Source: Marsupella aquatica (lineage: Eukaryota; Plantae; Marchantiophyta). From it: DNA of 64,000 nucleotides. The stretch spans positions 16,296,357-16,360,356 of the forward strand of contig OZ316892.1 in NCBI GenBank assembly GCA_973895155.1, read 5' to 3'. The translations under genes were made by a program, and so were the position numbers. The notes beneath the pieces are model-generated. The model saw nothing but the letters and a program-made list of their open reading frames with translations. It made no database searches and was not told where the DNA came from. Positions 4,710 through 60,636 of the stretch are shown piece after piece (positions within the stretch are counted from its first letter, which is position 1; each line of letters starts with the position of its first letter).

Positions 4710-4724
4710 TCCTCCTACAACAAG

Positions 4725-13971: not shown

Positions 13972-14043
13972 CTGTGTTGCTTCAGAATTACTTTATTACA
14001 CATCCTTCCCCTCACTAATGTCCATGCAAACAATTCACATTAC

Positions 14044-32651: not shown

Positions 32652-35600
32652 TGTGGATATACAGTAAACTTGAAAAGCTAAGATTAAGTGCAAATTTTTA
32701 AATTTTCTGGTCGCTAAATTTTAAGTTCACTTAAACTTACATTTTTTACGCCTTTTAGTAAGATACGATCTTATGATCTTACGATCTTACGATCTTACGA
32801 TCTTATTACCTTACGATTTATGAACTTACGCGGTACTAGAAGATTACGCCGTTGCAAGACTAACGGGCGGAAAGTACACTATGAGCCGCATCGCGTGAAA
32901 TCTTACGACCAGAGCGAATCACTCTCTGCATGACTATTTCCGATGCTTACAAGCATCGCTCCGCTTCATCTGATCAGCATCCACCTCAAGATTTGTGAAC
33001 CCGAGAGCTATGGCAACATTCGATTGTGATGAGGAATACCTCATTGATTCTGTGGCAATTCCAAAAGCGCTCGTCATCAGGCTCCCCAGGACCGAAGAGA
33101 GCTATGAATCATTACGCCAATCCTTGAGAGAGCTTGGACTGGAAAAATTATTACGACTACCATGGACTTCAGAGTTGGACACCTACCTGGAAGATTTTGT
33201 CAGAGGATCAATTGTCGCCTCACCTTCGCCTACTTCTATTCGAGGACGGCCCAGCAAATGGACCATAGATCACTTTGCGTATGCTTTTGGATGTTCTGCT
33301 GACAGAGAAGCGCTACTTTCGCCCAAGAATGATACATCAACTCCATACTTTTCAGGTACCCGGAATAAGAGAAATGGTTGGAATGTGAGTCAATGCAATC
33401 ATTTGGAGCTAAGAATTCTTTTGGAATTTTTGGTTCCTATTTTTCATCCCAAGAAACCAACTGTTTGCTCCATTTCTCTGGCCAATACCATCATCGCTGC
33501 GCACAGTGGTAGAGTAAAGGTCAATTGGGCTTTGGTATTTTTCAATGTTGTGAGGGATCAACTTCGGACATTAAGGGCGAATCAATCAACTCAACTGCAA
33601 AACTATCTAGCCCAGCTATACTCCGCTTTTGATTGCTCACTTCCTGAGGAGGTGATGGAGAGAGATTATCTTATGGAAGAAATCTCCAAGTTGTGGGAAC
33701 AAGATGAAATTATGCCTACTACAGCAGAAGAGGCAAACGTCATATCGCCAGCTTCTCCAGGCAGCCGGGCAAGTCTTCACAATTCAAGTCCTTCAGATGA
33801 GGTACCCATGGACCTAGAAGCACTTACTACAGATGCTGAGATGATAGACTACCCAGGGATCCCCTCACCACCCCTTTCCACAGGAATTGGGAAGTTTCCT
33901 ATTCGACTTGCACAGGACGACTCCAATCAGACCCTGATCAGTAAGGTGTGTGCTTTGCTCAACTGTGACTTTCATTCACTGTACGAGACCATTGAGCAAT
34001 TGCGCCATGACGCAGTGACATAGGTTCCTCCTTCTGCACTTTCATCTCCGGATCATGAGAATTCGCCATCATCTTCACCTCCAGCAGAAATTCAGCTCTC
34101 CACAGAGGAACTTTTTGCTGTTAAGACCGTGGCTCAAATCTCAGTTCCATCCCCTACAGACTTGAAGGAGACCTCACCTACAAATTCAGAGCCTCCTCCC
34201 TGCTCATCTGTAGAACATCACTCCTGCCTTAAGATTGTCCATGAGTTAACTACTATGTTAGGCTGCCGTTCAGAAGAAGTCACCTCCATAGTCGATGAAT
34301 TTCTTGATAAACCTGAACCTTCACGCTCCCCACTGCCATCCTCTCAGTTTCCCTATAGTCCTAATTCCAATTATGAGCCTACTGATAGTCTACCTCATAA
34401 ATCTTTGCACTCCACACAGCCCTTCTCTCAGCAAGGATTTCCCTTTTCTGAAGATTCTGATCCTCCATCCACACCAGAATACTTCTTTCCCTATGATATT
34501 CCAGTCTGTGACTCACCAGATCAGGGATTCGAAAGAGTTAATGCAGCCTTGCGATCTAATCCCAACCTTGTTGCAGTTGTCACTTCTTCTACCCAGACTC
34601 CTAGAAACGCTATCATCTATAAAATGGAGCCTAGAACACCAGAGCAACAAGTCCAGAAGTATGTCACCACTTGTAAGGTTATGCATGCCAATACACCGCC
34701 TATAAGTGAGTTCTGGAGGTTTTATTATTTGAAGAAAGCAGAGGCTAGCTACATTTTTGATCTCAGGATGATTGGTACCTCTTGCGTGGAGTTGGCTCAG
34801 TTTGATGAGTACTGGACAGATTCAGTCTACTTCCGACCTATACTGGCCGTTATGTTTCTACAAGGTGATGTTGAAGTTGATGACCCGGATTTAATCTTGG
34901 CCTATTTGGGAAATATAGCCGCTTATGCTTTAGATTTCTTACTGATTTTTCTAAAACAGAGCAACAAGTCTACTACCCCTGATCACTCATATATTCCCAC
35001 TGGACCCAAGGTTATCCTTACTTCAACCACTTCTTATGAAGACAAGCAGCGAGTATGGAACAACATCAGCACGCAGCAGCTAACAAACTACACTCGCTAC
35101 TTCCGGGATGTGCAGTGGAAATTATGATCCTCCTACAACAAGATGCTGAGTACAGAGATGTTCTTACAATTCTACCCATCTGTCTACGCCAACTCGTGCA
35201 ATTGTTTAGATGTCATAGGCATCTTACGGGAAGCAATCAGAATCAACCAGTGCTTTTTGGAGAAAAGGATGCCACTTATGTATTGGGGAAGACAGATGAG
35301 ATGTCTACCTTACATCCGGGATCAACCTCACTGTGATGAAGTAAGGGAAGCTATTCGGACGCGCACTATTTGGAAAGTAGAAATTAGAGAACCAGAGGAT
35401 ATTCGACAACCAAAAGATTGAAGCAGACCTGCAATTTTGTTAAGTGTCAGAGGCAGTTTCAGTTACTGTACCCCGCTCGATTTTATTAGACATGTTTTAA
35501 GATTCCAAAACTCATCAAGTCTTTTTCAGTAGACAACTTATACATAGGAAAACACATTGGCAAAGTCTCAATCACTCTGGATTGTAGTTAGAAAGTTAGA

Positions 35601-36636
35601 AATACTTTAGTTTGCTGAGTTTAGGGTTATTGTTAAGTTTCCGCGACTACGACTTTACGATCTTATGATCTTATGATCTTACGAACCTACGCTTTTACGA
35701 ATTACGATCTTACGATACTACGGTAAACTTAACTTAGTTAGTTTTAGACCTTTTCATACTTAGTTTTCATTTTTGACTTTTTGAGGGTTTTGAAGGGTCA
35801 TGACTCTTCAACCCCCAAGGGTTTTTCCTCGATGTTTTTCACTATAAGTACCTTCCACTTCTAATAAGCAGAAGTAAGTAAGTCAGACATGACTTGTCGC
35901 CCATTGGTGTTGTCCTTGTGATTTTGGACTTTTTGAAGTTCAGAGTAGGCAATCCTAGGAGGGACTTACCTCCTTCTTGTATTTTGGAACCCAAATACTT
36001 GAAGTAAAACCTCAGTTATGAATCTCGTGAATTATAATGTCAGATTCCGCTTTGGTGACACATTGTAATCTCACAAGTTCTTAGAGTTAACCCATTGAGT
36101 TTAAGTTGCATTGGAAATGATGTTTTCACCTTCATGTTACTTAGTACCATCTAAATGCTGAAATATTTATCCTTTTAGATCTTGACTAAGTATCACTTAG
36201 GAAGAAAGGTCAAGACATGTTGCCGGCATTTTAAAAGGATACTCTAGTATGCAGTTTAGATCTGAAAAGCTGTGTGGATTTGAATTCCCTTAAAGTCATT
36301 CCATTATTGCTTATGTCTAAGGAGTAACCTTGGTATATTCCAAACTCCCTTAAGCATACTCTAAGAGATTTTTCCTTGTGTTTTGTTAATTGCAACCTTT
36401 TGCTTAATTGATGGTTATATGATGTTGAGTTATCATCAAAAACTGCTCATCGCTGTGGAGCGATCTTCAAAGTACCTAATTAAAGTAGTCAAGATTGATT
36501 ACTATGTGTGACACAACAGCTTAAAGCTTTATTTTTAGTTTATTACATCAAACCAACCCAATCTTGTTCTTAACGGGAACGAATATCGAGTTTAGAGACG
36601 TAAAAGAGTTCTTTTGGTTCTCTATAGCAAACTACA
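32652..36636 (+). repeat. 3' LTR of element B (3985 bp)
   Basis: Near-identical to 2258-6218, followed by the TSD AAGAG. Confidence 0.95.
33010..35127 (+). pseudogene. 3'-LTR copy of the B LTR-encoded gene with a premature stop
   Basis: Near-identical protein to 2592-4709, with CAG>TAG at 34021-34023. Confidence 0.85.
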
Positions 36637-36641
36637 AAGAG

Positions 36642-38266
36642 AGGGCTACCTTAGGGAAAGAATTGCAAGAAGCCCGGATTGAGTTAGAAGACGCCCAGAA
36701 GGAGCCGGAGGAGGCGCGCAAGGACCTGGATGACACCCAAGAGGAGTTGGAGGAAAGCACGAGGAAGATGGAGAACTTACAGCGGCGGGCCAACAACCAA
36801 ACGGAGCGGTTGAAGAAACAAGCCGCAGTATTTAAGTGCTTGGCTTCATCAAGTCCAACTCAATTGGGGCAACCCAGTTGCCAGGGGTAGTACCGGCCGA
36901 AGGACAAGCCAAGACACTCACCCCGGTGCCGGAGGTAAGTGGCAAGGGAACCGGCTGTCGAAACAGGGAAGAAGAAGAAGCGGAAACCTTCTGGGTCTGG
37001 GAGTTATACGGCTTCTCAAGCCGTTGTGCCCGAGAAGGTAAACACGGCACCAACCTCCGGCATCAAAACGGCGGTGGATCCATCGGTCCTAGGAAGTGGG
37101 GATGGCAAGGCCGAGGCTGGGACAACCAGTAATGAAGCCGAGGTACCGGATCCTCCACTAGAACATGCCGGGAAGGCCGTAACCGTATCGGAGGCCATGG
37201 CCGAGGCCGAAGCCGAGGGTGGACCGAGTCAGGCCGATGAAGAGTTGACTCGGTCCGGGGCAGGTAATCTATGAGAGGACGGACCAACGGCAGTGGTTGA
37301 GGAGGAAGCATTAGGAGCGTCCATTGAGGATCCGCCACCGGTGTCGTGACGGTGCAAGGGCGCCGTTCCTTTTAGGGAGGGCGGACGTGGAGGTAGGAAG
37401 TGTGAGTGGGCAGGACGGGCGCTGATCTCCAAGTTTAGACTTAGGATCAGGACCAAGAGACAGTCCTGACACTTAGATTAGTGGGATTGCGGATCCACGG
37501 GTAAGGGCAACACTTGTGCTCCTGCCTCGCTGTACATAGGTAGATTACAGTTAGGTAGATTACAGATAGGTAGATTAGGCTTACGCTGCAAGGAATCAGG
37601 CGGATCCACAGCCAGGATAAGTACCTGGGCTGCGGGGAGTTAAGGGCCTCTTCTTTAGCAAGTTTTAGTTGCACCAGCAGGGCTGGGATCAAGTAGTAAG
37701 AGAAGCTCTCGGTTAGTTATACAGTGACCCTTGTGTATATTCATGTTTCCTCATGCCTAAGAGCTGAATAGAGTTGGCCTCACGGCTTAGTTCGCAGAGC
37801 TTGTGTATGAGATGTACTGTTTGTATGGCAAGTGCATGGTATAACTCAGTCAGAAGGAGTCATTTTGCTATTTGTGTGTCGCATTAACTTGTGTGAAGAG
37901 TGCCCACATCGACTAATATAGAGAAGGGAAGCAAGCAAGGGAGTGAGAGTTGGATGTGTCGAGCTGAGAGAGGTCTTAGCGGCTTAACCAAGCCAATTGG
38001 GGATCATTCCGGCGGCGGAATCCAAATATACCTAAAGAAAGTGAGGAGAAGACAAGGGAAGGCCTAGATTAGGCCGACTTCGTATCTCATGACCCGATGA
38101 AGGATCTGTCCAGTATATGTGTATAAAATGTTAATAGTAGTAGTAGAGGATTAGCAGCGTCCCATGCCGCTAAGCCGCGGAAACGGCCTCGCCGAGGATG
38201 AAACCTGCGGGAATCGGCTTGTGCAGGGGGGTTTCTTGGGTTTGGGGAGTCATGGGACGCACCACA
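36642..38266 (+). mobile_element. Family-A LTR, copy 1, right part (end of the LTR ORF to ~37349, then noncoding LTR end)
   Basis: Continues ...ERATL.KEL, as at 55352. Ends gggacgcaccaca, matching the solo LTR end at 55772 on the reverse strand. No PBS follows. Confidence 0.88.
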
Positions 38267-38336
38267 AAAACCCTTAGCATGAGGAAAAAAAGAGAAAATC
38301 AGCCTATTCATTAAAAGTGTATTATTATTTGATTTA

Positions 38337-38661
38337 TGTACATTTGGGCAATGAAAAGTGTACTTTTGGGCTTGGAAAAGTGTACATTTGGCCAATGAAA
38401 AGTGTACATTTGGGGATAGAAAAATGTACAATTGGCCCAAAGAGTGTACATTTGGGCAATGAAAAGTGTAAATTTGAACATCAAAATAGGTACATTTGGC
38501 TTTAAAAGTGTACATTTGAGTACATTTGGCCTAGAAAGTGTACATTTGAGTGAAAAATGCATACATTTGGCTTAAAAAGTGTACATTTAAGTGCATTTGG
38601 TCTAGAAAGTGTAACTTTTAATGCAACAAAGTGTACATTTGGCCTAAAAAGTGTACATTTG
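38337..38661 (+). repeat. Left subterminal ~22-bp repeats (AAAAGTGTACATTTGG core)
   Basis: More than ten degenerate copies are visible directly. Confidence 0.9.
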
Positions 38662-38912
38662 CCTACCAACTCTTCTTATAATCATTTAAAAGAAAGGAAT
38701 GAATAGAAAAATATTTTTAATTATGTAGAAAAAGCAAACATTCATATTCATAATGATCAAAAGTTTAGAAAATGAGGAGATAGTATCAAATTAAAACTAT
38801 TAGAATAGTAAATAACTAGTACGTAAATTACTATGTTTGAATGAGTGACTATCTTAGTTACATAAAAACTAGTAACTATCTATTTAATTATTATAGCTTC
38901 TAACAACTAAGT

Positions 38913-41900
38913 CTACTTGTCCATCCTTTGAAGATAATTTTGGACAGTTTGTAGAACATTTCGAGGGATCTTCAAACCTCTGCCCGCCATGTTTTCTTCT
39001 TTCATTCCAGATTTAAAACCATACATTACAGAATTTGCATACTGCCAATGTTGAGTATTCTCACCAAACCCTAGATCTCGTTCCCAGTGGACATGAAACA
39101 ATTTAGATACCGCGCACTCTCAGTCACATCAAGTTTAGAGTGTTTAGGCCTCCACCATTCAACTGGGAACATTGGAGCGTACTGTCGAGGCAGAGAAGGG
39201 TTTGTTGAAGATGTAGTTGGGACTTCATGCTTTGGGTCCACCAAACCCAAAGCTCTCACCAACCAGAAATGACCTCCACCATTTTTATTCTCCCAATCAT
39301 CCTCGGGTCGAAGAAATACAAAGTTTCCTTCACAAATATCCTGTAAAGGAATCCATCGTCCTTGTTCTCTCTCAGCTCGAGATCCAACAAATGGTGTTGC
39401 TTGATCTTCCATCTCTTCCAAGACCTCATTTTGAAGAGCCGTTATCTCTGCATTCTCCTCATCTTCACTTGGAGGACCACTTTGTTCCGGTTGGTTGACC
39501 TTGTAACCAGTGCCGTGGTTAGTCTTAGGCCAAAATCTGTTTTTCAAGGGAAATTGAGTACTTCCCTCCCCTTCTAGTGCGAGCCCATTTGTCAACAACT
39601 TCACAATTCTCTCCCAATATTTCACAAGAGGAAATCTTTCCTTATATGCTATAGATGTCTCATCAGTGCAACTCCTTCTCAAAAATTCAAGGTACTTGTT
39701 AAGAAATGGGATAATCTCTTCAGATTTTTTGTGTATCTCTCCAATGGATTTAGCTAAGGGCTCTCCACTAGGTAAAAGAAGAGAATTTGTTGTCAGATCT
39801 GTTGCCCAAATGCACCTTCCACCAACTGGAGCCCAAGCTTGCTTTACATGGGACTTATACTGAAATATTGGTACATTATCTCTCATAGAGAAAAGAAATG
39901 ATACAGGTTTTGAGTGACCTTGAATATCTTTCACCTTGAAAGTTTGAAGATATTCTTTGTAAGATGCAACTTCTTGTATCAATCTGGGAACTGGATGAAT
40001 GCTCTCGCATTCCCATACCTCTGCCATAAGAGCAAGGAGGGTTGCAACTTCTTTGTGCTGAACTTGATATGATACCTTTGAAAAGAGTGCATCAACATCT
40101 TCGTGCGTATGACCAACCATTAGAAAAGACATTTGAACAGTTTCAAATACTCCTCTACTCACAAGCTCGCTACAAAATGCCATGACAGTCTGGTTTTTGT
40201 TGTCCTTTGCTGAATTATCCATCTGCAATGTTAGGTGCCTTGGCAAGGGCTTGAACGATGGACTGCCTTGCTCTCCTTGCATGTCTTCTCCTTCATCCTC
40301 ATCTTGTTGGTTTGGGACGGTCTCAGTCCGACTCTCAGCTCCATCTTCAGAACCAATATACCTATTCATCGGTATATTCTTTGGTTCCAAATAACCCGTC
40401 AAAAATGCTTCAAAGTCAAGTAGGGCTTGAAAGAAAGGTCTGTGAGGTTCCCAATGAAGGCCATCCAACATGTCACCTGTCTTGTCTCCATTGTACTCTT
40501 CAAGGTCTCAAAGACACTTAGCCAAGGATGTCACTGTGAAATCGGCATCTCCTGGCCAAAGGCCAGTGACACTAAAGTGTGCATAAACTCTTGGATCCCT
40601 CCCGTGGGTCAACATCCCTGTGAGAGCAATAGGTAGCGGCATTCCATGACCCGAAAGAGATTTAGGAGTACTAACCATTTTTGGAATCCATGTCTTTGCT
40701 TGATCCATCTTGTCGTGAATAATGCAAAGATATTCTCCTGGGTGTTGTTTGGCCATCACTCGATGAGCGTAGTAAACATATCTACGTGACATTTGCTCAT
40801 GAAGATGTTGCGCTCGCTTTTCTTCAATTTGAGCACGTTCTTTTTTCCTTCTTTCTCGCATCAAACTGTCTTGTATTCACAACAAAGAGTACACTTGGCA
40901 AATGCACCATCTTTATGAAAACTAAAGTTTGCAAATGAGTTGCTCCAGATCTTGTAGAGAGTATTCTCTATGACAGGAGGAAGCCCTTCTTCCTTCATCT
41001 TTGTTCTCACATCTTCCAGAATCTCTAGCTTCTTGTAACACGCCGGAAGACGGTACTCAGTAGAGTCTGTCCCATGTGCCCCTCCATAAGGCATATGAGG
41101 CATGGGCTCTGCATTTCGAGTCAAAAAATCCTCCAACAGAGCTCGTGCATGCAAGGTATTTGCCCTTGTTTTCATCAAGCCCGTATTGCCATGGAACCCA
41201 ATTTTGCAACCCTCCACATATCTCCTTTTGTAATCATAATATTTGGTGTGGCTAAAACCGTGGATAATTGCAAATGCATGTCTGCATACGACCATACCCT
41301 TAAGAACATGGTGTCCCTTATCACGAACATCATCCTCTCTATAGTGAAAGAGGTTGAAAATGTGTGACGTTTTTGACTCGCTTGACATCCCATGAAATTC
41401 CATCCTAATATCTTCGATGTTTTCCCTTGGCATAATGAGACAACATTTTTGCTTGCAACAATTTTCTCTTTTCACGTCATCAATTGACGCCTCTGTTGTT
41501 TTTGAAATTGCCTTGGTTTCCAACAACCTCCTCTTCTTTTCATTAGGATCTACTTGATTCCTCTTGTTGAAATTGTACGGCCTTGAACACAGTACTCCTC
41601 TATCACTTACATCCGCATTGAGTTCATCCCTATCCATTGAGTCCATCCTCTCAGAACCTTCCACCAAAATGTCTGACAAAAATTTTCCATTTGCAACTAG
41701 TTTTGTTGAATCAATCCGCCATCGAATCAAACTCACTACTCCCTTGTGGATGTTGGGAAAGTATTGTGCTGCCACGACATCTTTCACAGCAATCCCAACA
41801 TGGTCATCACCAAGAATTTCATCATCAACTGCTGCTGTCACTTGAGGGACAGTGATCGTTCCAGTGGCAACCATTTTGGTTCGATCCAAACCAGTGTAGA

Positions 41901-42684
41901 GTTCAACCAACTCTGACATCCAGTTTGCCCGATGAAAATAGTCACACCTAGTGTCCGTGGTGTTCGCCAAACAAGACTGTGAAACAAAATTTGCCTTGTC
42001 CTTCTGCTTCTTAGAGGAAGATTTGTTGCTCCCATCAATATCAACATTCCATACTTTATTGTGGACGTCAACCACATCCCATAGAACCCAGGAGCCCTTT
42101 GCCTCTTCAATTGTTGTAGCTCCACCATGTGCGTAAGGTAAAGTCTTACTACCATGGATCACATCTGTGACTTTTACACTAACCCGAGACTCACCGAGTA
42201 ATATGTTATGACATCTCTCCATTGGATCGATCTTGAAAACAACTCCAAAGGCCACACAATGGCCAGAGATAAACATTTCAACCTCATCGCCTGGCCTTAG
42301 GGTGGTCGAAGCATCCTCCTCTACATTTGCAAAATTATGGATGTTGTTATCTTTTTGAGTCGAACAACTACCAATACTGATGCGTTTTTGAGTAATCTTA
42401 TCCGCAGATCGATATGCACATGACATATCCCAAATGACACATGAGTCAATGGCATCATGAAGATTTTCTGCCCTAGGCATTGGAAAAGGGAGCTTCCTAG
42501 TCTCACCAAAGGCCTTCTCAATGAGAACCCCAATTCGATTCTCTCCCAGCACAATATTTTGAACACTCTCTCGCGGATCTGTCTTTTGAACTGTCCCATT
42601 TCCAACGTCGTAACCATCGATTGTCAAGGTAACATCATCGCCCCTAGAAAACCTTTGAGACATCCTTTTCCTATTTTCCTGCAC
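38913..42684 (-). pseudogene. Sola-like DDD transposase with three N-terminal En/Spm-TNP1-like repeats; frameshifted
   Basis: Motifs CCKQKC, VCRHAFAIIHG, FAKCTLC, IIHDKMDQAK, LQMDNSAKDNKN and FLMVGHTHEDVDALFS. Frameshifts near 40862 and 39095; TGA at 40508. Confidence 0.75.
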
Positions 42685-42749
42685 ACTGAAAAAAATGGAT
42701 TAAAACCAACCTCATGCAAATTTTGATTCAGACTACTATCCTCCAATTT

Positions 42750-43565
42750 CGGATTTGGACTAGGACCATCCGAGTTCGGATTTGCACCGGGACCATCCAA
42801 GTCTAGATTAGGACTGCAATCCTCCGAGTCTAGATTTGGACTACGATCCTCCGATTCTGGATTTGGCCTGGGACCATCCGAGTCTGGATTTGGACCGGGA
42901 CCATCCAAGTCTAGATTTGGACTGCAATCCTCCGAGTCTGGATTTGGACTACAATCCTCCGATTCTGGATTTGGATTGGGACCATCTGAGTCCGGATTTG
43001 GACCGGGACCATCCAAGTCCGGATTTGGACTGCAATCCTTTGAGTCTGGATTTGGACTACAATCCTCCGATTCTGGATTTGGACTGGGACCATCCCAGTC
43101 CAAGGTTGGACTAGGACCATCCCAATCCAAACTAGGACTTGGACCATCCCAATCCAAACTAGGACTTGGACCATCCCAATCCAAACTAGGACTCGGACCA
43201 TCCCAATCTAAACTAGGACTTGGACCATCCCAATCCAAACTTGGACTCGGACCATCCCAATCCAAACTAGGACTTAGACCATCCAAGTCCAAACTAGGAC
43301 TCGGACCATCCCAATCCAAACTTGGACTCGGACCATCCTAATCCAAACTTGGACTCGGACCATCCAAGTTCAAACTTGGACTCGGATGATCCCAATCCAA
43401 AGTTGGACTCGGACCATCCCAATCCAAACTAGGACTTGGACCATCCAAGTTCAAACTTGGACTCGTATGATCCCAATCCAAAGTTGGACTCAGATGATCC
43501 CAAATGAATGCAAACTTGGACTAGGACCATCAGAATCCAAACTTGGACTAGGACCATCCTAGACC
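42750..43565. repeat. 27-bp tandem array of the palindrome TTGGAYTNGGA-CCA-TCCNARTCCAA
   Basis: Unit such as ggactcggaccatcccaatccaaactt, about 30 copies. Lies between a minus-strand GTGAGT donor (43766) and a polypyrimidine-CAG acceptor (~42680). Confidence 0.92.
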
Positions 43566-44099
43566 AACCCATGATGTAATGGGAGATAAACTTCAAACAT
43601 CTTAAGCTAAGAAAAATCCAAATTTAGGAAGACCCCGTATTTTACGGATCTCCCTAGATATGGTGTAGCCTAAAGTTTGCGTGGTCTTAAGGCAGACCCT
43701 AATGTCTACATACAGTTTCATGAAATAATGGAACCTTATATTTGAATGCATTAACCTTATACTCACCTTAGTATTAAGATCTGGTAGAAGATGAATATCA
43801 CATCCAAGGGGTATACATTGTTGTTTGAATAATGGTAAAAACTTCCCAGAAGCTTGAAATACAAGCTATATGCCACTAAATCTTGGGAGTAAAAAACAAA
43901 CTGAACCCTAAACCACACATGTCTGTAAAAGATAAACTGAGAGGACTCCAAAAGTCAAGAAGCTGGCTAAGCTGACCCAATGAAGGTAAGTGGCTCAATA
44001 CATAACACTTTAAGAGAAACTCCACTCCGGATTACATGGAGCTTAGATTTGGGAAACTAGAACAAGAATGAGCTCCGAAGTGGGCGTCTCCCAAATTAT

Positions 44100-44614
44100 A
44101 CCCTTTGCTCGAGTCGGCTCAACCGGAAATCGCGTGAAGATAAGGGTTGAGTACGCGTTCACCTTAGCTTGCGGACACACCTTATCTTCACGAGCCTATT
44201 TGCGCGGGGACTACCATGGAAGGCTGTTAGGTAGGTAGGACATCAAGGAAGGAGGCCGTATGCAAGGTGAGGGCAACGGGCCGTACGCCATAGCAGGCCG
44301 TATGCAGTAGAAGGAGGCAACCGGCCGTACACAGGCCGGGGTGAGGCAGTAGGGGGTAAAGGGACGGAGAGGTCCAGCCAGGACCTCATTCTCATTCTCT
44401 CACTCCTCGCTCTCTCGCTCTCTCGCTCTCCTCTTGCTCTCCTCCTCACTCTCTTGCTCTCCTTGCTCTCCGCTCTCTCTCCGCTGTTCGTTCTCTCTCT
44501 GCCTCCCCGCCTCCGCCTGCCTCCGCCTTCCACCTTCCACCTCCATTCTTTTTTATTGCCCTAGATCGGACGCCTGCTAAGATGCCACGTGTCACGCTGC
44601 CACGTGTTAGAAAG
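44100..44614. promoter_or_regulatory. Probable divergent promoter region between the transposase and the ParB-MTase gene
   Basis: GC-rich, with a CT-rich tract at 44387-44550, two GCCACGTG G-box/ABRE motifs (44584, 44599) and a 13-bp inverted repeat (44133-44145 / 44180-44192). Confidence 0.45.
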
Positions 44615-47600
44615 ATGGAAGCGAATCGCGTCCTTGTGATGTCCTACATGGAAGAAACGGAGGAGTTTGACCTCTCCTCTATGAGCGACAGTGTGGAACT
44701 TGCACTCGAAGACTCTAGACAATTTCAATCACGAATCCCTAGTAAGTATCTATCACCTATCCTCCCTAAGTCTTAGAGGACTGGGACCATCCGAGTCCAA
44801 ACTTGGACTCAGACCATCCCAATCCAAACTTGGACTCGGATGATCCCAATCCAAAGTTGGACTCGGACCATCCCAATCCAAACTTGGACTCGGATGATCC
44901 CAATCCAAAGTTGGACTCGGACCATCCCAATCCAAACTTGGACTCGGATGATCCTAATCCATCTGGGAGATTGAATCCCGATTGTAGGAGCAAGTCTAAA
45001 ACCATCTCAAGTTGGACTAGGACCATCCTAATCCAACAAGAGTTATTCGAATGTTTTAAAGGTTTCAAGTCTAACATGGATGACGTTTATGATGCAGGGA
45101 GTGATCTTGTTGTTTTCAAACCCGTGATTGCACCGACCCACTGCCTGGACGGATTCTTACTAGATGAGAGATCCCCACGCTTTCGATGGGGGCTTGAGTT
45201 CTCAAGAACCCCGCTTAATAATGAAGTGCCATCAACCACGATTGAACCTGTTTTGACCTTAAAGTGCAGAGAAAATGATAGCCTGACTTTTGTTTGCGGA
45301 CCTGTGGTCTCTATTGGCATTGGAGGGAGAGGGATGAATACGGTCATTCTCGAGATGCATGATAAGTCCTATTGGGTTAAAGTTAACCTTCTGTCAAAGG
45401 CATACTCCTCTGAATTCAATGTCGAATGGCACGCAAGTGGGGAATTGAGCATTTTGTCAATGGGATTTTTTCCAAAGACCTATGACACAAAGAAGTTGGT
45501 TGCCGGGGTAACTGGTATGCTTCCAGTCGACATTATGTATGGGTTTCAATATTTGAAACTCAACATGATGAAGCACCAAGGCAATTTTTCTTTTGCAACT
45601 ACCTGGACGTTAAGCAATTTACTTGAGAAAGCTGGATTGTTATCGTTGGAGTCGGAGGAGCCTGGTGTTTTAATTGATAAGGATGTTGCATTTGCTCCCA
45701 AGTTTGATTTAGTCAAAGCAAAGCAATGGATAGAATCTTTGTCCAAGATGAGAAAGCTTCCAGCGGTGAATACAAACCCTGTGCCCGAGAAAGCGCCAGA
45801 GAAAGCTCCAGAACCTACAACAGAGACCGCGGGAACTACAGCAGCGACCTCTCAAAGAGCAGTGGGAAGACGAAAACAAAGCCAAAGGAAACCTCCGGTT
45901 GAGAAGAAACTTCCGGTTGAGAAGCCGAGTACGAGAAGCCGAGTTGACAAGCCAGTTGACAAGCCAGTTGACAAGCCGAGTACGAGAAGCCGAGTTGAGA
46001 AGCCAGTTGAGAAGAAACGTCCGGTTGAGAAGCCGAGTGCAAGTGAAAAGAGACCAAGACAGAAGAAGAAACAGAAAATTGATAGTGCCATCATGGATGA
46101 CACTACAAAAAACCTGACAGTGCATTCACAAGATGTGGACGAGCAGTTGGACGCTCCTGAGGAGAAGAAGGTCTTAGAAGGTAATGAGGTATTGCAACAA
46201 ATGGAGCAATATTATACGTTTGGGATCAATTCGATATTTTCTATTCCTGTAGACAGTATTTTCCCTGCGTCGGCAAGACTCTGTTACAGAATGTTGAATG
46301 CAGAACATGTAAAGGAGGTGGCCAATTCCATGATAAGAAATCCGGGGCATGAACCACACATAGCAGACTTGATTCCTTACACTACAAAACATAGAAACCT
46401 AATGCAGTATGACAACACAGAATCAGATAGGAGGGACTTTGTAGCAGCCGTGAAAAAGGGCGAGGTTCAATTCCTTGCCATTAGCGGTCAACATTCGGCT
46501 AGAGCAGCCAGATGGATTCGAGAATGGGCAAACAAGGATGCCAAGCTGACAGCATTGGCGAAAAAGCTGGAATTTCAAAAGTCAAGAATATTATCTCATC
46601 GAACACCATCGTCAATATTAGTTGAGCATTCAATGCGATCTAATGCGATCAATAGCACGATGGTGTTTCAGTCATGCTTCAAAGATACAGTCGTTCATGC
46701 TAGGCGACAATTTGTGGAATGTGGAAAACCTAGCCGGCCAAAACATGGGGACAACAAAACAAACGCTCAAGACAATCAAAAATTTCAGGTACGAAGTCTT
46801 ACTGCTTGATGGGTACAATACCGTAGATTCATGCACATTCAGTAGAATATTTCCACTGATATCGCCTAGTTTTGTGTTGGACCGGGATGGTCCCAGTCCA
46901 AATGGATTCATGCACATTCAATAGAATCTTTGTCCATTGATATCGTCTAGTTTTGTGTTGGATTGGGATGGTCCCAGTCCAAATGGATTCATGCACATTC
47001 AGTAGAATATTTCCACTGATATCGCCTAGTTTTGCGTTGGACTGGGATGGTCCCAGTCCAAATGGATTCATACACATTCAATAGATTATTTTTCCACTGA
47101 CACTGTCTAGTTTTGTTCTGGACTGGGATGGTCCCAGTCCAAACTAAATCATGCACATTCAATAGAATATTTCCACTGATACTGTCTAGTTCTGTGTTGG
47201 ACTGGGATGGTCTCAGTCTGCACCTGAGTGCTATCAAACAATTGAGTTATGGAGAACTAATAGACTTTCCTTTGCAATTGTAGGATTGGTTGGCTCTTGC
47301 AAGAATGACCATGGGAAGGAAAGATTGTCGAAATGTTTACTGGTTACTGTTTGCGGACGATGCTCTTTTTGAGTTATGGAGTTTGGTATGCCAGTTGTGG
47401 TTGGATGGGAAACTTCCCGATGGAGCTGGGGTAGAAGGAAATGAGAAGTCTGAAAAAGCAATTACTGTTGCCATGTTTCGTTGTTTTGATGGTGAGTTGA
47501 TCTCACAACGAGACATCACAAGAATACTGACGCGGGTGAAGTCAGGAAAGGTATTGCTAAAGAAAGATGCCTCTAATAAATCAGACATGCCATCTATAGA

Positions 47601-49668
47601 GGAGTTGGCCAAAGATGTGAAGATCGTGCGGAAACTGAAGTCCCTTATTGAAGACTACTATTGCACCAAAGATGCGGTGAATTTCCTGGCAAATACTAAT
47701 TGGGGGAAAGTAGTGGAGGTTCTTCCTACGCTAGCAATTGATTCAGAGTTCAGCAGGTGTCGAAGAGCCGTTGGCGAGGTCTATCTTGCCAACCTTTTAA
47801 AACCAAATCATACGTGGGAGAGCGCAATCTTGCCGACGGCATTGGCATTCCGCCTAGATGATATATACTGCCAGAAATTTGGCGGAGGATCACGTTCTCA
47901 GACCCTACCATGGGCTACATTTTTTAGCGACAATCTCATGAAGACCATTGATCCAGAGTCATTGCAAGAAGCTCCTCCGACCTGCCCTCTTGCCATTGTT
48001 GATTTTAGCCGGCTTCCGCAAAAACAATGGACTGAAGCAGAGATTCTTGTTCTCTTTGAATACATTGTGGAGCTTCCACAAAATCCCATGATTGTTGTGA
48101 CGATAACAGTTCATCCTGGACAACTTGCATTGAATGTCCATGGTGCCCTTCGTAAACTGGGACAAGAGAAAGCTTTGACCATTCACATTGAGTATGGGAG
48201 TTATTCTCGAGATGATCAACCGCACCCTCATGACTCATGTTGGGGTGGGGGGATTGAAGAAGTTATCTTTGCGGGGATTTCTCGAGATGAAGACGTCAAT
48301 TGGAATGAAGTTTTCAAGCCCAACTATCCAAAGCCAAAATTCTTGTATACTGCAAAGGATGTTGATTACGAAGTATGCAAGATCGACAAGGGAAAGGGGA
48401 AGGCTAAGGAATCAGATGAAGGGACACAAAACGACGACCTAAAAGTGGTTTTGGACCCGGAAGAGGCCGTCAAGATTATGAATATGGCCCCTCGATTTGA
48501 GACAGTTGGCAGTCGCGGAGGGTGGGTTAATCCTCATGCCAAACCCACGCGGATGATCCGAAGGATTATTGAATCCTTGTCAGAACCGGGAGATTTGGTT
48601 CTAGATTTTTTCTCCGGTGGCCAAGTCATGAAGACATCATTTTTTTGCGATAGGGAATGCTTTGTTTATTGTGACTCTCACTCCGAGAGGCATTTTGTGG
48701 AAGCTTTTGCTTCCTACCTTTGCGAGAGAGTTCCCTCACTTAAAGCTCATTGTGAATCACTTGCTGAAAATTCTCGACAATGGGCTACCATTGTTGCGGC
48801 TGTAGCTGTCGCTGTTGAATCCGATGGTTCTGAGTCTGAAGATGTTGCTGACAAAGTGGCTGAAGGCGTAGAGGCATCAGAGGAGGCATATGTCATGAAT
48901 TTGGATGACCGTGTTGGTCAAGGTGAGCCTTACGATGTAGATGATGATATTGGACTTGCACCAAACCGTTCATCTGGTTTAGATGACATCCCTCCGGGGC
49001 CCAATGAAGTTCAAGTTGATGATAACTTGGACAAGGATGATCCCAATCCAACAACGCCGGGAGGACAGATGGAGCAACTGGAAGGAGCAAGGGTTCATAC
49101 GTTTGATCATCTTTCTTCAACCAATCTGATCAATGAAGGCGCAACGAGGCTCGGAGATTCAAATGAAGCTGAAACTAAAGAATTGACTCGGGGGGAGACC
49201 AAGGGGGAGACTGGCGGATTGCCTGACATTCCGATCAATCCAGGAGGAAATGCATCAACAGTTGCTGACAACCAGGCAGGTGCTTCAACTTGTCCTGACA
49301 CACTCTTTTCAGCTTCTGATGACAAATTGGTGTTCGTTCGTTCACACTCGGGGAGTCCTCTTGTCCTTCCGCTCTCAAAAAAGAAAGGAAATAGAGTTGG
49401 ATCAACTGGATGGAGGTCATTGGAATGCGACGCACGATGTTACGTGTGGAAAAGTGGGCCAAATCGAGGCCAAGAAATATCATTGGATGCTGCTCATTCA
49501 ATTCTCAATAAGGAGGAGTATAAGAGTGGAGAATTGGGGTTGATAACTCCTATTTGGACTTCACCTTATTGGGTAGAACAAAGTACTTCAGATGTCAATT
49601 TTGAAATCCAACAGGAGCTTGGTGCTGACATGATTATTGATGAATACGGATCTCTTATTTTGGAATGA
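44615..49668 (+). CDS. ParB/Srx-like domain fused to a beta-class N6-adenine/N4-cytosine DNA methyltransferase-like domain (predicted exons 44615-44741, 45062-46788, 47284-49668; ~1412 aa)
   Basis: Both GT-AG introns keep the reading frame. ParB-like: IPVDSI..R.LNAEHV..VANSM..FLAISGQHS. MTase-like: FFSDNLM, LAIVDFSR, NPHAKPTRMIRRIIESLSEPGDLVLDFFSGG..DRECF. Confidence 0.75.
44777..45036. repeat. Second 27-bp palindrome array (predicted intron 1 of the ParB-MTase gene)
   Basis: Same unit as 42750-43565. Confidence 0.88.
46827..47220. repeat. Five ~79-81-bp tandem units, each with the palindrome TTGGACTGGGA-TGG-TCCCAGTCCAA (predicted intron 2)
   Basis: Units start at ~46827, 46906, 46987, 47066 and 47147. 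The core is the 27-bp-array motif in the opposite orientation. Confidence 0.9.
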
Positions 49669-49885
49669 AATTCAGCCTTTGACTTTGTATTTATTCATAT
49701 CAATCTAAAATACTTCTCGGTCTCACAGAATGCGCTCAAGAATTAAAGTCTCCATATCCGTCTACACATTGTGAGGCTTCTAAAAATGGTATGTAGGTTA
49801 ATTTTCTTTTTTGTCAGCCATTGTCTTGTATTTTTGGACTGAGACAATCCTAATCCAAAGTTCACTTTTGGTCTTTTCTCTAAGA

Positions 49886-50944
49886 ATGGTGTTTGGTGCA
49901 CTTGCAAAATCGAGACCTGGTCCCCTCAAGCGGAAGTTGCTGATTTTGGACCTTAATAAAATACTTTGGGATTCTATTGAATTCCAAAGCAAGGGCACAT
50001 CCAGGAATATTGTTACCTCAAGTGGAGTGCATTGGGATAGATCAAATGGAACTAGTCGCATGTATACAGAGAGGCCACGGCTCCATGAGTTTCTAAAGTT
50101 GGTTTTTGACCGGTTTGACGTTGCAATTTGGACATGTGCTGGGATGCCGCGAACAGTGAAAATGTTGAACATGATGTTCACAATTGAGGAGCGGTTGAAA
50201 CTGAAGTTTGTATTCACACAGGTGGAAGCCTTTGACACAGGCATTCAAAGGTGTGACGTTACAAATGGAAAGGCAAATGTGCTATTGAAGGATTTTCGGG
50301 TGGTATGGAGTGCATTTGGAAATCTATATGATGAAACCAACACACTCCTTGTGGATGACTCCCCCTTGAAGGCATTTGCCAACCCAGACATGACCGGACT
50401 ATTTCCAGTGCCCTACACGCATGCCAATCGTGGAGACAATTTTCTTCTAACAATTCTTTGGCCATGTCTTGAGAAACTGTCACATGCAAGTGACATTCGT
50501 TGTTATCTTCTCCTAAACTCTCCAAAGTGGTCTCTATTGCACATTAAGAGAGACAAGGCAAAAAATGAGATTACTTATGATCAACTTAGTAAGAGATGTG
50601 CAGCAAAAATTTGGAAGTCACAGTATAGGCATAGTGTGCTGGACCTCAATAACAATGAGATTCCTTGGGCTGTGAAGCACCGTATATGTAGCTTACGTCC
50701 TGAGGTGGAACTTGACGATGCACTTGTCACCTCACTTGCTAGATCATTTGTAGGACGGGAATATTCAGGTCTATATAGAGAAAATCCCAGACATTTTTTG
50801 CGGGAGATTATAGCAGTTAGGAACAACACCACCAAATTTCATCTCCCTGAAGATAAAGGGAGTTGCAACCGTGACATTAGGGTAGATAGTAAAGGAGACA
50901 AAGGCACGTGCTCAAATAAATATTGTAAGGAGCACTTTGTTTAG
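49886..50944 (+). CDS. FCP1/SCP (NIF) family HAD phosphatase-like protein, intronless
   Basis: Motifs KRKLLILDLNKILW, ERPRLHEFL...FDVAIWT, LKDFRVVW and NTLLVDDSPLKAFANP. Confidence 0.88.
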   Translation: MVFGALAKSRPGPLKRKLLILDLNKILWDSIEFQSKGTSRNIVTSSGVHWDRSNGTSRMYTERPRLHEFLKLVFDRFDVAIWTCAGMPRTVKMLNMMFTIEERLKLKFVFTQVEAFDTGIQRCDVTNGKANVLLKDFRVVWSAFGNLYDETNTLLVDDSPLKAFANPDMTGLFPVPYTHANRGDNFLLTILWPCLEKLSHASDIRCYLLLNSPKWSLLHIKRDKAKNEITYDQLSKRCAAKIWKSQYRHSVLDLNNNEIPWAVKHRICSLRPEVELDDALVTSLARSFVGREYSGLYRENPRHFLREIIAVRNNTTKFHLPEDKGSCNRDIRVDSKGDKGTCSNKYCKEHFV

Positions 50945-51200
50945 AGATCTGACTCATGTTAAGCGCATTAGATAGTAAAAATGGGTGTCAGCCCTGGATA
51001 TTCATTGTAAGTTTGGACACAATTGTATATAATTATTTTCACACATTATCAATCAATGGTCCTTGCCTGGGCTTCTTTGTGCGGAAATGTTTTTACAAGT
51101 ATGATCTCTATCCCATGGTTCTTTGTGAACTAATAAATAATATAATACTATTATAATTAATATAATATAATATAATATATTAATATAATACTAATAAGAT

Positions 51201-51289
51201 TTGGCCTATAAAGTGTACATTTAGGTATCAAAAAGTGTATATTTGGGCTTCGTAAAGTGTACATTTGGGGACATAAAAGTGTACATTTC
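51201..51289 (+). repeat. Right subterminal AAAGTGTACATTT repeats
   Basis: Four copies, in the same orientation as the left-end copies. Confidence 0.85.
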
Positions 51290-51337
51290 AGGACTGATTT
51301 GTGAACAAAAGAAAATACACTTTTAATGAATAGGCTG

Positions 51338-52204: not shown

Positions 52205-52578
52205 TGTGATGCCTAGCCAAGAATCACTAGGCCAGTTTAAATGGTAAAATCAGGAGTGTACCCTGGAAACACATTAGTATAGTAACAAAAACACGGAAAA
52301 TATAAACAATTAAGGGTGATTATGGAACCCGAGCCGAGGCCGGAAGTTAGGACATCGGGAGAGGGAACACGATTAGGGTTAGGGTGTGCTAAGTACAGGC
52401 AGCTATGGGTAACTAACAGGAAGGAAGACCAGGCAGGGGGGTAAGGATCGATCGCAAGGAATGGTGGCTCATTTGCAAGCACGAACTAAGCAGACGACTA
52501 TGTAAAGCAACTACTGTTAGCTGCTTAGGCAAGCACTTGGGGAGGGAGCAGATACCGACTATCAATTCAAGGAAGGGT

Positions 52579-55500
52579 ATGAGCAACGTCAATCAGGCTG
52601 CTCATTTTTTGGGATGCCTGTTAGAACGGGCAACTGAGTACATTGGGACCTACGAGGACGAAGAATCGGAGAGAGCCGCTCAAGAATGGCAGGAGCTTGC
52701 TCGATTGTGGGAGCTGCAAAACTTTGCCTTCTTAGGAGGAGAACTCATCACGGCTGAATTCCTGTGGACACCTACTGGCAACAAACTTGACGATCTTCTA
52801 TTTTGTGAGAACAGAGTAGTTGGCATCCGGGAAGCCATCAACCGCTGCAACAACATACACTGGGAGTTGAAGGGTAGCACGGAGGGGTGGACAAAGGCAA
52901 CTGTGCTAGGAGAAACATCCACGGCAGCAGCTATGAAGAGGAAAGGGAATGCCAACGAAGTGACCACCCCTGCAAAGAGAACGAGGTCGGTGGCACCAAG
53001 GAAGCCAGCCGAGCAAGGGAGCAGGAGGCAGGACGAAGCCGAAGAAGAGGAGGTTGACCCCATCAATGTCGTTCCAACAAGAGATGACACCTGGAAAGGT
53101 TGGGCGGCGACCCTCCCCGAGGAACTGCAACTACACTTTGCAGGTGAAGAGGATGCATGCTTTACGGCTATGCAGACTCGGAAGTACCAGGGCTTCATAG
53201 CCGGATCCAGCTTGGAAGCTTTTGTGAAATTACCATGGCTGAAGCCGATGGTGCCGGATTCAAACTTATTAGAATTTGTGGGATCATGGGAACCTGAGAC
53301 CCATTCCACAAGGGTCTATGGGAAGGATTTCTATCTCACTCCCCGGGTGATTGCCAAAGTGTTTGGCTTGCCGATGGGCAATAAGACCAAAGTAGATACT
53401 TGGAAGACCTTGCCAAACAAGGAGTTCCGATCATTTCCAGGGCCATCAACAAAGAATGGCTTCTTTCGGAACACCTGCACCAACCTGCACATAGGAGAGA
53501 TCATCGATTTCTTGCGGATAACCATGCACTGCAACTTGCCAAGGCCAAAGATTGGCAAGGCACAGGTCTACCTAGCGGAAAGGCCAGACCCAAGCCGGGA
53601 CTACAACGGGTACCTCCTCACCCAACTGAAGAAGATCTTGAAGGAGGAATAGCAGGCGATCGGCATGGGAAGCGTGTCCCGGCTTGGCTATCACATGCCG
53701 CTGTTGTGCCGGTATGCCCAAAGTCAGATCTTTGCCCCGGTACTTCCACTGCAAGCAAGGGCACCAGAGGAGGTTCCGGAATAGAGGCCGGCAACAAAGA
53801 AACCAAACCAGCTTGACAGACTTACAATCAAGCAGGTGTTTAGGCCGAGGACGGAGGACTTGCCGATGCAGCAACCAGGCATGCAGAAATTGTTGGAGAA
53901 GGAAAAGAGAACGACAATGGCAACGGCACAGGTACAGGACACTCCTTCAAAGGTCAGCCTAAGCCGACTCGATCATGAAGGAAAACCCCTTTACCGGAGC
54001 CAAGGAAAGAAGGAGGCCGGAACACGAGCCGGTTGTTTGAATATATGTAGGAGCCTCGAGTCTTGTAGCTGAGGGAAGGCAGCCTAAGGCTCCTGTTTAG
54101 GGGAAACAAAGGGAGAAGACAGCCTGGAAGCCAGAGGAGGAACTAGGACCTGCTAGCTATGATCGGCAAGACCAGGGGAACAGTCGGGGGAGCCGGTAGT
54201 CCAAGCAGTGGAGGAGGCGGTGGAGGACTACGGCAATGATGACTCCGGCTACGGGTCGGACCATCATGTCCCAGGAATAAGGACCTGTGGCCGTTTCATC
54301 CCCCGCTTCCAAGAGTAGTTCGAGGGGACCCCACCCAGCTGAACAGCCCCGAGTCCCGCCCGAGCTTTAACGGCATAAAACAGATGGCACAAGAGTTTCA
54401 AGAGCGACTCAGGGAGGGAGAGAGGGCAACCCTGGCTAGGGAGAAAGATTTACCAGGGGGAGAATGGCCAGAGGACATCAGGCGCCTTGCAGAAAAACAA
54501 AGTAGCCCTCCAGCCACGATAGAAGAAATCCGCAAGGCGGCTTGGGAACAAAGGCCACGATGGTTGATGCCGATGACTTCTACTCACTCCACCTATGCTA
54601 AAGAAAGAGCCATGGAATACGGGGAGATGTGTGGAGAACTTGCGCTCAGCATCTTTGGGGAGGAGTTGGAGCAGGGACCTTTTTCCACAGGGAGATGTTG
54701 GAAAAACGCCGATTAGAAGAAGCGGTGGCTTTGGAGAGAAGAAAGAAAGATGAGGTCATCCATCCACCTAGGGCAAGGGAAGCCAAGGTGGAAGACCTGA
54801 AGGCGGCCAAGAAAGCCCAAGATGAGCTATAGATTAAGCGGCATGAGCTAAACATCATGCAAGGGCAATTGGATACCGCTCAGTCTGATAATCAGATTAT
54901 CAAGGATAAACTGACTTGGACCCAGGGGAGTTGGCCGTTGCGGTCAAGGAAAGGGAGAAGTGGAAGCGGGAGCTGAGGGACGCAGAGGAGGCCCACATAG
55001 CAGCCAACAATCGGGCAAGGAAAGGGAGAAGTGGAAGCGGGAGCTGAGGGACGCAGAGGAGGCCCACATAGCAGCCAACAATCGGGCCATGGCGGAGACT
55101 CAGAGAAGGGAAAGGGCATTGAAGGGGGAACTCAAGGATATCCGCGGAGCCCTTGAGCAGAAGGAGGCCGAGTTAGGGAATCCTATCAAGGGATTATTGT
55201 GCTGCAGCAGAAGCTTGTATCCCTGACGGCCAGCTTCAAGGCCGACCTGCGTGAGAAAGACGACCAGCTCGATCAGACTTATGCCAAGATGAATAAAATG
55301 GAGTCTGAGGTCGTAGCGGAGCTCGACAAGGAGCTAAGAGCAACCCAAGAGGAGAGGGCTACCTTAAAGAAGGAATTGGAGGAAGCCCAAAAGGAGCTCG
55401 AGGAGGCGCGCAAGGACCTAGATGAAGTGCAGGAGGAGTTGGAGGAAAGCACGAGGAAGATGGAGAGCTTACAACGGCGAGCCGACAACCAAACGGAGCG

Positions 55501-55771
55501 GCTAAAGAAACAAGATGCAATATTTAAGTACTTGGCTTCATCAAGTCCAATTGGGGCAACCAAGTTGCCAGGAGTAGTACTGGCCGAAGGACAAGCTGCG
55601 ACACTTGCACCGGTGCCGGAGATAAGTGGCAAGGGAAAGGGACCAGCTGCCAAAATAGGGAAGAAGAAGAAGCGGAAACCTTCTGGGTCAGGGAGTAATG
55701 CGGCTTCTCAAGCCGTCGTGACAGAGGAGGTACAACCAGCGCCAACCTCAGGCACAATCACGGTGGATCCA
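52579..55771 (+). pseudogene. Family-A LTR ORF, copy 2, disrupted
   Basis: Starts at ATG 52579 (MSNVNQAAHFLG). PMD-like core, coiled coil and KKKKRK motif. Carries stops, frameshifts and a 71-bp duplication. Confidence 0.75.
54945..55087 (+). repeat. 71-bp tandem duplication
   Basis: caaggaaagggagaagtgg...aatcggg occurs at 54945 and 55016; single in the other two copies. Confidence 0.9.
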
Positions 55772-60408: not shown

Positions 60409-60636
60409 ATCCACCCCTAGAAGGTGGGGATGGTAAGGCCAAGGCCGGAACAATCAGTGATGAAGCCGGGGTATCGGATCCTCCACTAGAGCATGTCGGG
60501 GAGGCCGTAGCCGTATTAGAGGCCGTGGCCGATGCTGAGACCAAAGCTGAGGGTGGACTCAGTCAGGCCGATGGAGAGTTGACTCGGTCCGGGGCAGGTA
60601 ATCTGTCAAAGGACGGACCTACGGCAGTGGCTGCGG

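Follow-up and report, generated by a model that had tools for sequence, protein, structure and literature searches.

We examined a 64,000-nucleotide stretch of Marsupella aquatica DNA (assembly GCA_973895155.1, contig OZ316892.1, positions 16,296,357 to 16,360,356; hereafter the window), in which a 13,038-bp unit at 38300-51337 is bounded by inverted ends and carries three genes, i.e., a transposase gene of the DUF7869 type and two cargo genes, the first joining a ParB/Srx-fold domain to an amino-methyltransferase fold and the second encoding a HAD/NIF-family protein (Table 1). The element is real, and the unit represents a Sola-like cut-and-paste transposon in decayed form, with a conserved accessory cassette. 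Its outermost 22 nt (38300-38321 vs 51316-51337) are identical as inverted copies at 22/22 positions, a match seen in none of 100 shuffles, and the arms are still 91% identical when extended to 34 nt. These terminal inverted repeats (TIRs), of about 32 bp, bear out the TIR-bounded 13-kb unit proposed in a first-pass annotation of this DNA.

The same annotation had reported one palindrome in or beside all three genes, and this too was confirmed. A 25-bp palindrome, with 11-bp arms and a 3-bp centre, is present in 42 copies inside the element and in none of the 50,962 bp outside it (up to six mismatches allowed over the 22 arm positions; null mean 0.08 per 13 kb). Twenty-six copies are upstream of the transposase gene, 7+1 upstream of cargo 1 and five in the cargo-1 intron, with one copy each in the transposase coding sequence, in the cargo-1 coding sequence and ahead of cargo 2, such that the arrays flank the spacer of the divergent genes on both sides and fill the intron. 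A protein-coding role for the 27-bp arrays was rejected, as the long frames there are pure repeat. A different repeat class characterizes the ends of the element, where the subterminal repeats contain a 13-mer that shares AAAGTGTA with the TIR and occurs in 12 copies at the left end and four at the right, with five scattered matches (up to two mismatches) elsewhere in the window. Because the two repeat classes are unrelated, two readers are suggested, one being the transposase, which would recognize the TIR-like motif, and the other a dimeric protein that would recognize the internal palindrome.

Relatives of the transposase were collected in a metagenome scan, from which the best 80 of 233 relatives were kept as loci, most of them short or distant. 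Seven of the 19 close loci carry at least two copies (two to twelve) of a palindrome of their own, different from that of the window, beyond the shuffle null (reached in no more than 2/200 shuffles), and in six of these seven the copies are upstream of the transposase gene; locus L028 also has two copies, but 22/200 shuffles reached two as well. In L001, the nearest relative, a palindrome covers the same E-T-V codons of the transposase loop as in the window, with arms that have changed yet are still complementary, and in L033 palindromes flank the upstream spacer on either side, the contig ending at the far copy. A 63-bp tandem array with a long palindrome was also observed downstream of a distant DUF7869 transposase (L051, 2134-3018).

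Table 1. Features of the Sola-like element, in window coordinates
Feature	Position	Strand	Remark
Left TIR (CAGCC...)	38300..38331	+	
Left subterminal 20-22-bp repeats, 13-mer with TIR core	38337..38665		probable transposase sites
DUF7869 DDD transposase pseudogene, N-terminal repeated domains	38913..42663	-	Pfam, E 9.8e-39
Single palindrome	40307..40331		variable loop of transposase coding sequence
Palindrome array 1, 27-bp period	42731..43567		upstream of transposase
Spacer separating the divergent genes, CT-rich tract	43568..44775		likely contains both promoters
Palindrome array 2, plus one copy 40 bp ahead of cargo-1 ATG	44776..45036		
Cargo 1 exon 1: N-terminal domain of no known family, Lys-rich linker, ParB/Srx-fold domain (46150-46788, SGQH motif)	45076..46788	+	
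Cargo-1 intron, GT-AG, five ~80-bp repeats each with palindrome	46789..47283	+	predicted from sequence
Cargo 1 exon 2: helical domain, beta-class amino-methyltransferase fold (~47899-48753), acidic linker, conserved C-terminal domain	47284..49668	+	
Single palindrome	49027..49051		acidic linker of cargo 1 exon 2
Single palindrome	49834..49858		28 bp ahead of cargo-2 ATG
Cargo 2, HAD/NIF-family, 352 aa, DLN in motif I, Cys-rich C-terminal tail	49886..50944	+	Pfam PF03031, E 4.2e-15
Right subterminal 22-bp repeats, 13-mer	51199..51288		
Right TIR (...GGCTG)	51306..51337	-	

Proteins encoded by the element

A minus-strand DDD transposase had been predicted, and the gene is present, with the conserved DUF7869 acidic motifs IHDKMD, QMDNS and HTHEDVD, but it is broken by three lesions: the frame shifts near 40868, meets a stop at 40508-40510 and shifts once more near 39085. 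L001 has a single continuous frame across the positions of the first two, and the indels could be either mutations or assembly errors. In the region used for the search, the protein shares 29-55% identity with 17 of the 20 longer relatives, the other three matching short parts alone, and relatives carry PF26133 in the N-terminal repeated region; the repeats of this region did not match the CACTA-linked open reading frame by BLASTP (E 0.049). In a quick tree of 58 rows, which was made from unlabelled DUF7869 proteins only and kept 42 of the 80 loci (loci with short cores, L029, L033 and L080 among them, were removed), the window transposase groups with L001, P0009 and P0012 in a 17-row clade that includes Riccia proteins (Shimodaira-Hasegawa-like approximate likelihood ratio test 100). 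The named close relatives of both the transposase and cargo 1 are all from the liverworts Calypogeia fissa and Riccia sorocarpa, and a scan of viral contigs did not find the transposase (0/234). The label Sola1 is provisional, being drawn from the three acidic motifs, which would mark that group, and from the parallel with an Ectocarpus element discussed below. Other loci showed different arrangements: in L054 (79-9757), TIRs of 440 bp enclose a 9.7-kb element that has a DUF7869 transposase, a frame with a Tudor domain and two divergent frames (808 and 381 aa) without a Pfam match, and distant DUF7869 transposases accompanied by a divergent 460-510-aa frame were seen in L065 (150-5586), L061 (164-1684) and L073 (118-1596), with the ends of L065 (AACGG...CCGTT) closely resembling the termini of the Ectocarpus Sola1 element.

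Both cargo frames are intact and on the plus strand, as had been claimed, but only cargo 2 is uninterrupted, as cargo 1 is split by the predicted intron. Spliced cargo 1 is a protein of 1,366 aa with no internal stop, and the relative P0038 reads through with an identical junction (KFQ followed by DW). The exon-1 domain has 84 relatives, many of which stop at the intron boundary, and the Riccia proteins P0090 and P0104 hold both domains; the alternative that the gap is a lesion was rejected, given that relatives stop or splice at the same place. Cargo 1 is multicopy and dispersed, with three proteins on three contigs in Calypogeia fissa and six proteins on four contigs in Riccia sorocarpa, and although the cargo relatives are diverged (25-61% identity), intron position and linkage are kept. 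The N-terminal domain (45076-45780) is conserved in P0029, P0031, P0032 and P0034 and had no match in Pfam, NCBIfam or PHROG. The contigs of two relatives of the ParB domain, P0133 and P0134, measure 13,396 and 13,415 bp, which is similar to the size of the element, and may represent whole collapsed elements.

The proposed fusion of a ParB domain to a DNA amino-methyltransferase was supported for both folds by structure prediction, while methylating activity is doubtful (see below). The ParB-domain model had a predicted local distance difference test score (pLDDT) of 95, and its Foldseek ranks 1-9 were Noc, PadC and ParB chains, followed by Srx at rank 10 (best E 8.7e-4); in VIA, the domain reached Z 7.3, below Z 8, with a root-mean-square deviation (rmsd) of 3.3 over 99 residues, the top eight rows all being of this fold. 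Sequence-profile searches with the domain were blank in PDB, Pfam and NCBIfam and returned weak matches to families of unknown function in PHROGs, and its identity to bacterial ParB/Noc structures is 10-15%. Its motif is SGQHS, of which G, Q and H are each at least 90% conserved in 60 rows, instead of GERRxRA, the CTPase motif of centromere-binding ParB. A homodimer prediction made without an alignment scored 0.00 and was uninformative. Pattern scans for cargo 1 relatives found none among 35 candidate stretches of metagenome contigs, in viral contigs (0/502 and 0/17) or in prokaryotic genomes (0/104). The ESM Atlas clusters nearest to cargo 1 by features include DUF3723 (score 0.95, 168-181 shared features), a lead without alignment; DUF3723 is a conserved Starship gene that has been called homologous to chromosome segregation genes (bioRxiv 10.1101/2021.12.13.472469).

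The second fold of cargo 1 was recognized by Pfam as N6_N4_Mtase on the plus strand (E 2.4e-6). Its model had a mean pLDDT of 69, and exon-2 residues 206-490 matched CcrM with Z 17.2 and rmsd 4.1 over 213 residues, while the C-terminal motifs matched M.RsrI (E 3e-8) and motif IV precedes X-I, as in the beta class. The motif X/I region (NPxxKP...DFFSGG) is strongly conserved, motif I being D[FL]FSGG in 8/8 rows (DFFSGG in the window) and one residue shorter than the FAGSG of M.RsrI. At the catalytic motif IV, which is (D/N/S)PP(Y/F/W) in this class and whose column was identified from the alignment and from where the strand lies in the model, the window reads DFSR and other rows read DFTR, DFGR, DLAR, DFAR or DLI; the first Asp is present in 9/9 rows with letters (10 aligned), and PP[YFW] in 0/9. 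Judged from these motifs, the cargo-1 family keeps the fold and apparently the cofactor side, not the base-binding motif. As motif IV appears lost across the family while the fold and, apparently, the S-adenosylmethionine (SAM)-side motif are kept, a non-catalytic role of the methyltransferase fold is favoured.

Cargo 2 had been read as a phosphatase resembling those that act on the carboxy-terminal domain (CTD) of RNA polymerase II (Pol II), which was not supported. Among its 12 clear relatives and one weak match, motif I is DxN in 11/13 rows and DxDxT in 0/13, and cargo 2 itself lacks DxDx(T/V), the motif I of FCP1/SCP enzymes. It does share with FCP1, SCP and UBLCP1 the NIF domain and the residues of motifs II-IV (Thr, Lys and DD, all conserved among relatives), from which it differs further by its extra Cys-rich tail. 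Its best matches were UBLCP1, the closest solved relative, and HAD-IIID, both far under curated cut-offs, and the FCP1 model gave E 0.055; an assignment to FCP1/SCP was rejected. Nothing in its sequence points to the Pol II CTD as a substrate.

Recurrence in relatives and genomic surroundings

Two pairs of cargo 1 and cargo 2 relatives have contigs of exactly the same size, 8134 (P0008/P0118) and 6073 (P0045/P0122), among 28 x 11 proteins compared, for which the chance is about 1 in 1,000 under a jittered null; for the first pair, the cluster partners of the two proteins share a run accession. These ties are indirect evidence that the two cargo genes are linked in distant relatives. The contigs of several short-read relatives have sizes that resemble the spacings between arrays in the window (transposase, about 4 kb; exon 1, 1.6-2.1 kb; exon 2 with cargo 2, 4.1-4.5 kb), a pattern that fits assemblies broken by the arrays at shared points and is suggestive only. 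Pfam searches of 53 of 208 long frames, from 32 loci, showed that neighbours of the transposase relatives are of other families or of no known family.

The insertion site offers little to read. Sola elements have been reported to generate 4-bp target duplications with an AWWT/AWDT preference (PMC3845634), but the flanks here (AAAT on the left, ATCC on the right) have only AT in common and are not halves of one site. Because the left flank runs for 33 bp before reaching the edge of a long terminal repeat (LTR) and the right flank opens in the middle of a gypsy integrase, the site has been rearranged and no target duplication is readable.

The surrounding window is a nest of LTR retrotransposons together with a CACTA element. 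At 52205-60636, inverted copies (84-87% identity) of an LTR family with extra non-pol frames lie around a 1.2-kb LTR-plus-leader segment, an arrangement that recurs left of the Sola-like element at 36681-38266. Another segment, 4 kb in size and with a 717-aa frame that belongs to no Pfam family, is present in two copies of 98.7% identity (2258-6218 and 32652-36636), the second sitting downstream of a gypsy pol. The CACTA element, on the minus strand at 10182-21533 (Transposase_21, DUF4218, DUF4216 and Transposase_24), adjoins twin-BRCT frames (18209-18961, E 1.9e-13) and NSD-like PHD-finger frames (19674-20381), and is possibly another transposon carrying chromatin-reader cargo; a search for its ends in the window found none.

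Comparison with known systems

Bacterial ParB and Noc, with their parS and NBS sites, share with this element the ParB/Srx fold and palindromic sites, and differ in having GERR where cargo 1 has SGQH, besides the low identity given above. In phage ParB-terminase loci, ParB adjoins amino-methyltransferases (PMC4738411). A close parallel by description is Sola1-1_Ec32 of Ectocarpus, a 21.5-kb Sola-type element with an opposite-strand gene for a 1,104-aa ParB-like and N4C/N6A methyltransferase protein, for which self-binding and self-modification were proposed, similar proteins being cited in green and red algae and the moss element Sola1-1_PPa_tp being its best blastp match (PMC12477816). A ParB-like fusion to PF01555 opposite the transposase in an element of more than 10 kb is found here as well, and the first-pass statement that no described Sola-type element has this cargo therefore fails for its main part. 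The two elements, compared here by description, differ in host (a brown alga there), termini (AACCG-CGGTT vs CAGCC-GGCTG), TIR length (282 bp vs about 32 bp) and the 4-bp target-site duplication of the Ectocarpus element, whose published description, in the portion available, includes no phosphatase gene or palindrome arrays (PMC12477816).

The accessory genes PAG2 and PAG3 of red-algal Plavaka elements likewise have a ParB-like domain by tandem inverted-repeat arrays and, in the same cassette, a PF01555 methylase, with self-binding proposed, but the transposase is of the EnSpm/Plavaka type, ParB and the methylase belong to separate genes in which they are fused to a 2-oxoglutarate oxygenase and to SET, respectively, and no HAD gene is reported (bioRxiv 10.1101/2025.02.11.637652). 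Arabidopsis VANDAL elements and their VANC proteins resemble the present system in that family-specific tandem motifs occupy intergenic DNA, upstream DNA and introns, that of the gene for the factor itself among them; they differ in their MuDR transposase, their DUF1985/DUF287 protein and a 9-bp non-palindromic motif, and their function was demonstrated experimentally (PMC5735166). Neither a MuDR transposase nor a DUF1985/DUF287 protein was found in the element by Pfam scan at E<=1. In liverworts, the beta-class amino-methyltransferase fold is also known from Marchantia MpDN4MT1a/b, which in contrast are host genes with an intact TSPPY, ParB not being mentioned in the part of the report at hand (bioRxiv 10.1101/2021.02.12.428880); there was no Marchantia-named protein among the five relatives listed in the protein search.

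The core layout, i.e., a Sola1 element with an opposite-strand ParB-methyltransferase gene, is thus in print for Ectocarpus (PMC12477816), and ParB cargo by inverted-repeat arrays is in print for red-algal Plavaka elements (bioRxiv 10.1101/2025.02.11.637652). A literature search, which used no term for the phosphatase and did not extend to Repbase, found no bryophyte Sola element with this cassette, although the moss element Sola1-1_PPa may hold the layout. As far as searched, what is new is the land-plant version, the seemingly inactive methyltransferase, the linked HAD gene and the palindromes inside coding sequence.

Self-recognition and alternative explanations

ParB binds palindromic parS sites. 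By analogy with ParB-parS, the ParB-fold protein of cargo 1 is the natural candidate reader of the palindromes because it is encoded among them. The explanation we prefer, to which we would give not quite an even chance, is self-recognition in the service of anti-silencing, in which this protein would bind the palindromes of its own element and thereby hold the promoters open against host silencing; the anti-silencing part is suggested by the placement of the palindromes, which matches that of VANC target motifs (PMC5735166). We envisage that the TIRs and subterminal 13-mers would serve the transposase, and that cargo 1, in the manner of ParB at parS, would work from the internal palindromes, which are unrelated to those repeats. 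The ParB/Srx domain would bind a nucleotide, and the protein would load at palindrome sites and spread from them; the methyltransferase fold, retaining its SAM-side motif, would act as a DNA-binding or shielding module and not as a methyl writer; and the HAD protein may play an auxiliary part, acting not on the Pol II CTD but on another substrate, which is possibly the nucleotide that cargo 1 handles. The window copy could presumably move only with transposase supplied in trans. A self-recognition or anti-silencing cassette had already been proposed in the first-pass annotation, and it gains support from the element-specific palindromes and the cargo linkage in relatives. Its methyltransferase activity is doubtful, and its CTD-phosphatase part is not supported.

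Several observations weigh against the self-recognition explanation. The linkage of transposase to cargo and the presence of three genes between TIRs were seen in the window copy alone: none of the 80 metagenome transposase loci has ParB, methyltransferase or NIF cargo by tblastn or hidden Markov model, and no second copy of the three-gene layout between TIRs was found; contig-size ties of transposase to cargo relatives were 0 (9 x 39 compared); and sampled Riccia transposase and cargo locus tags are not adjacent, the nearest being about 100 genes apart. Twelve of the 19 close loci lack a repeated palindrome beyond the null (11 with none repeated, several of them short of upstream DNA), and 11 of 64 distant loci also have at least two copies of some palindrome. 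In cargo 1, no helix-turn-helix was identified, although the helical region that spans the splice junction was never modelled whole, and exon-2 residues 1-200 gave weak matches. The CpG observed/expected ratio in the element (0.34-0.70) overlaps that of the retroelements (0.40-0.70; CACTA parts 0.20-0.37), and there is thus no clear footprint of protection from 5-methylcytosine. Finally, transposases themselves can activate cognate copies (bioRxiv 10.64898/2026.08.24.746577).

In another reading, the palindromes are sites of the transposase, for autoregulation or transpososome assembly, with the cargo acting on other targets. In its favour, transposases can be sequence-specific activators (bioRxiv 10.64898/2026.08.24.746577), the largest array adjoins the transposase and palindromes lie beside transposase genes in seven relatives without demonstrable cargo, but a separate TIR-like motif already makes the subterminal arrays, palindromes occur in the cargo-1 intron and coding sequence and ahead of cargo 2, 4-7 kb from the transposase gene, and red-algal inverted-repeat arrays track the ParB gene (bioRxiv 10.1101/2025.02.11.637652); we consider it distinctly unlikely. 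An active, non-canonical writer of N4-methylcytosine (4mC) or N6-methyladenine, aimed by the ParB domain at the palindromes as a self mark, is unlikely in our judgement. The beta-class fold is complete, with the motif X/I region and the motif IV Asp conserved, the same was proposed for the Ectocarpus protein (PMC12477816) and 4mC exists in Marchantia; set against this are the absence of PP[YFW] from all nine rows and the shortened motif I, the TSPPY that Marchantia DN4MT1 retains (bioRxiv 10.1101/2021.02.12.428880), and the inactive methyltransferase domains known from another transposon, DIRS1 (PMC4738411).

Given the ParB/Noc fold with palindromic arrays and the Atlas clusters that include the Starship gene DUF3723, the ParB-like protein on parS-like arrays might instead hold excised elements, or the chromosomes that carry them, as a partition or tethering device for preferential inheritance or reinsertion. 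This appears improbable, as no ParA-like ATPase is found among the element frames, the Atlas lead comes without alignment and the sites cluster at promoters and in the intron, which fits transcriptional control. That the cargo consists of passively captured host genes (Pack-type), with repeats arising by neutral slippage, would be compatible with a three-gene layout found in one copy; it is very improbable in view of diverged cargo relatives that retain intron position and linkage, two intact cargo frames vs three transposase lesions, and isolated palindromes kept in coding sequence, with homologous codons in L001.

Returning to self-recognition, a more specific form of it is doubtful. In this form, bryophyte Sola-like transposons would have adapted a ParB-parS system of phage origin, comprising two genes, to eukaryotic chromatin. 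A ParB clamp, gated by a nucleotide and joined to a catalytically dead methyltransferase, would load at palindromes that are specific to each family and co-evolve with the clamp, those within coding sequence included, and would then spread over the element, while a dedicated DxN HAD enzyme would set the nucleotide state of the clamp. If true, it would constitute a sequence-programmable anti-silencing mechanism unrelated to VANC or TnpA.

Overall, our analysis extends a class of ParB accessory proteins, known from brown- and red-algal transposons with a function that is proposed only, to what is probably a land plant. That the methyltransferase appears to have lost its catalytic motif and is nevertheless conserved argues against self-methylation being all there is to it. 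A specific candidate binding site can now be named, and the variants in relatives suit specificity swaps; as transformation works in liverworts and mosses, direct tests of how giant transposons shield themselves against silencing come within reach, and a protein able to open chromatin at a 25-bp site could also serve as a tool.

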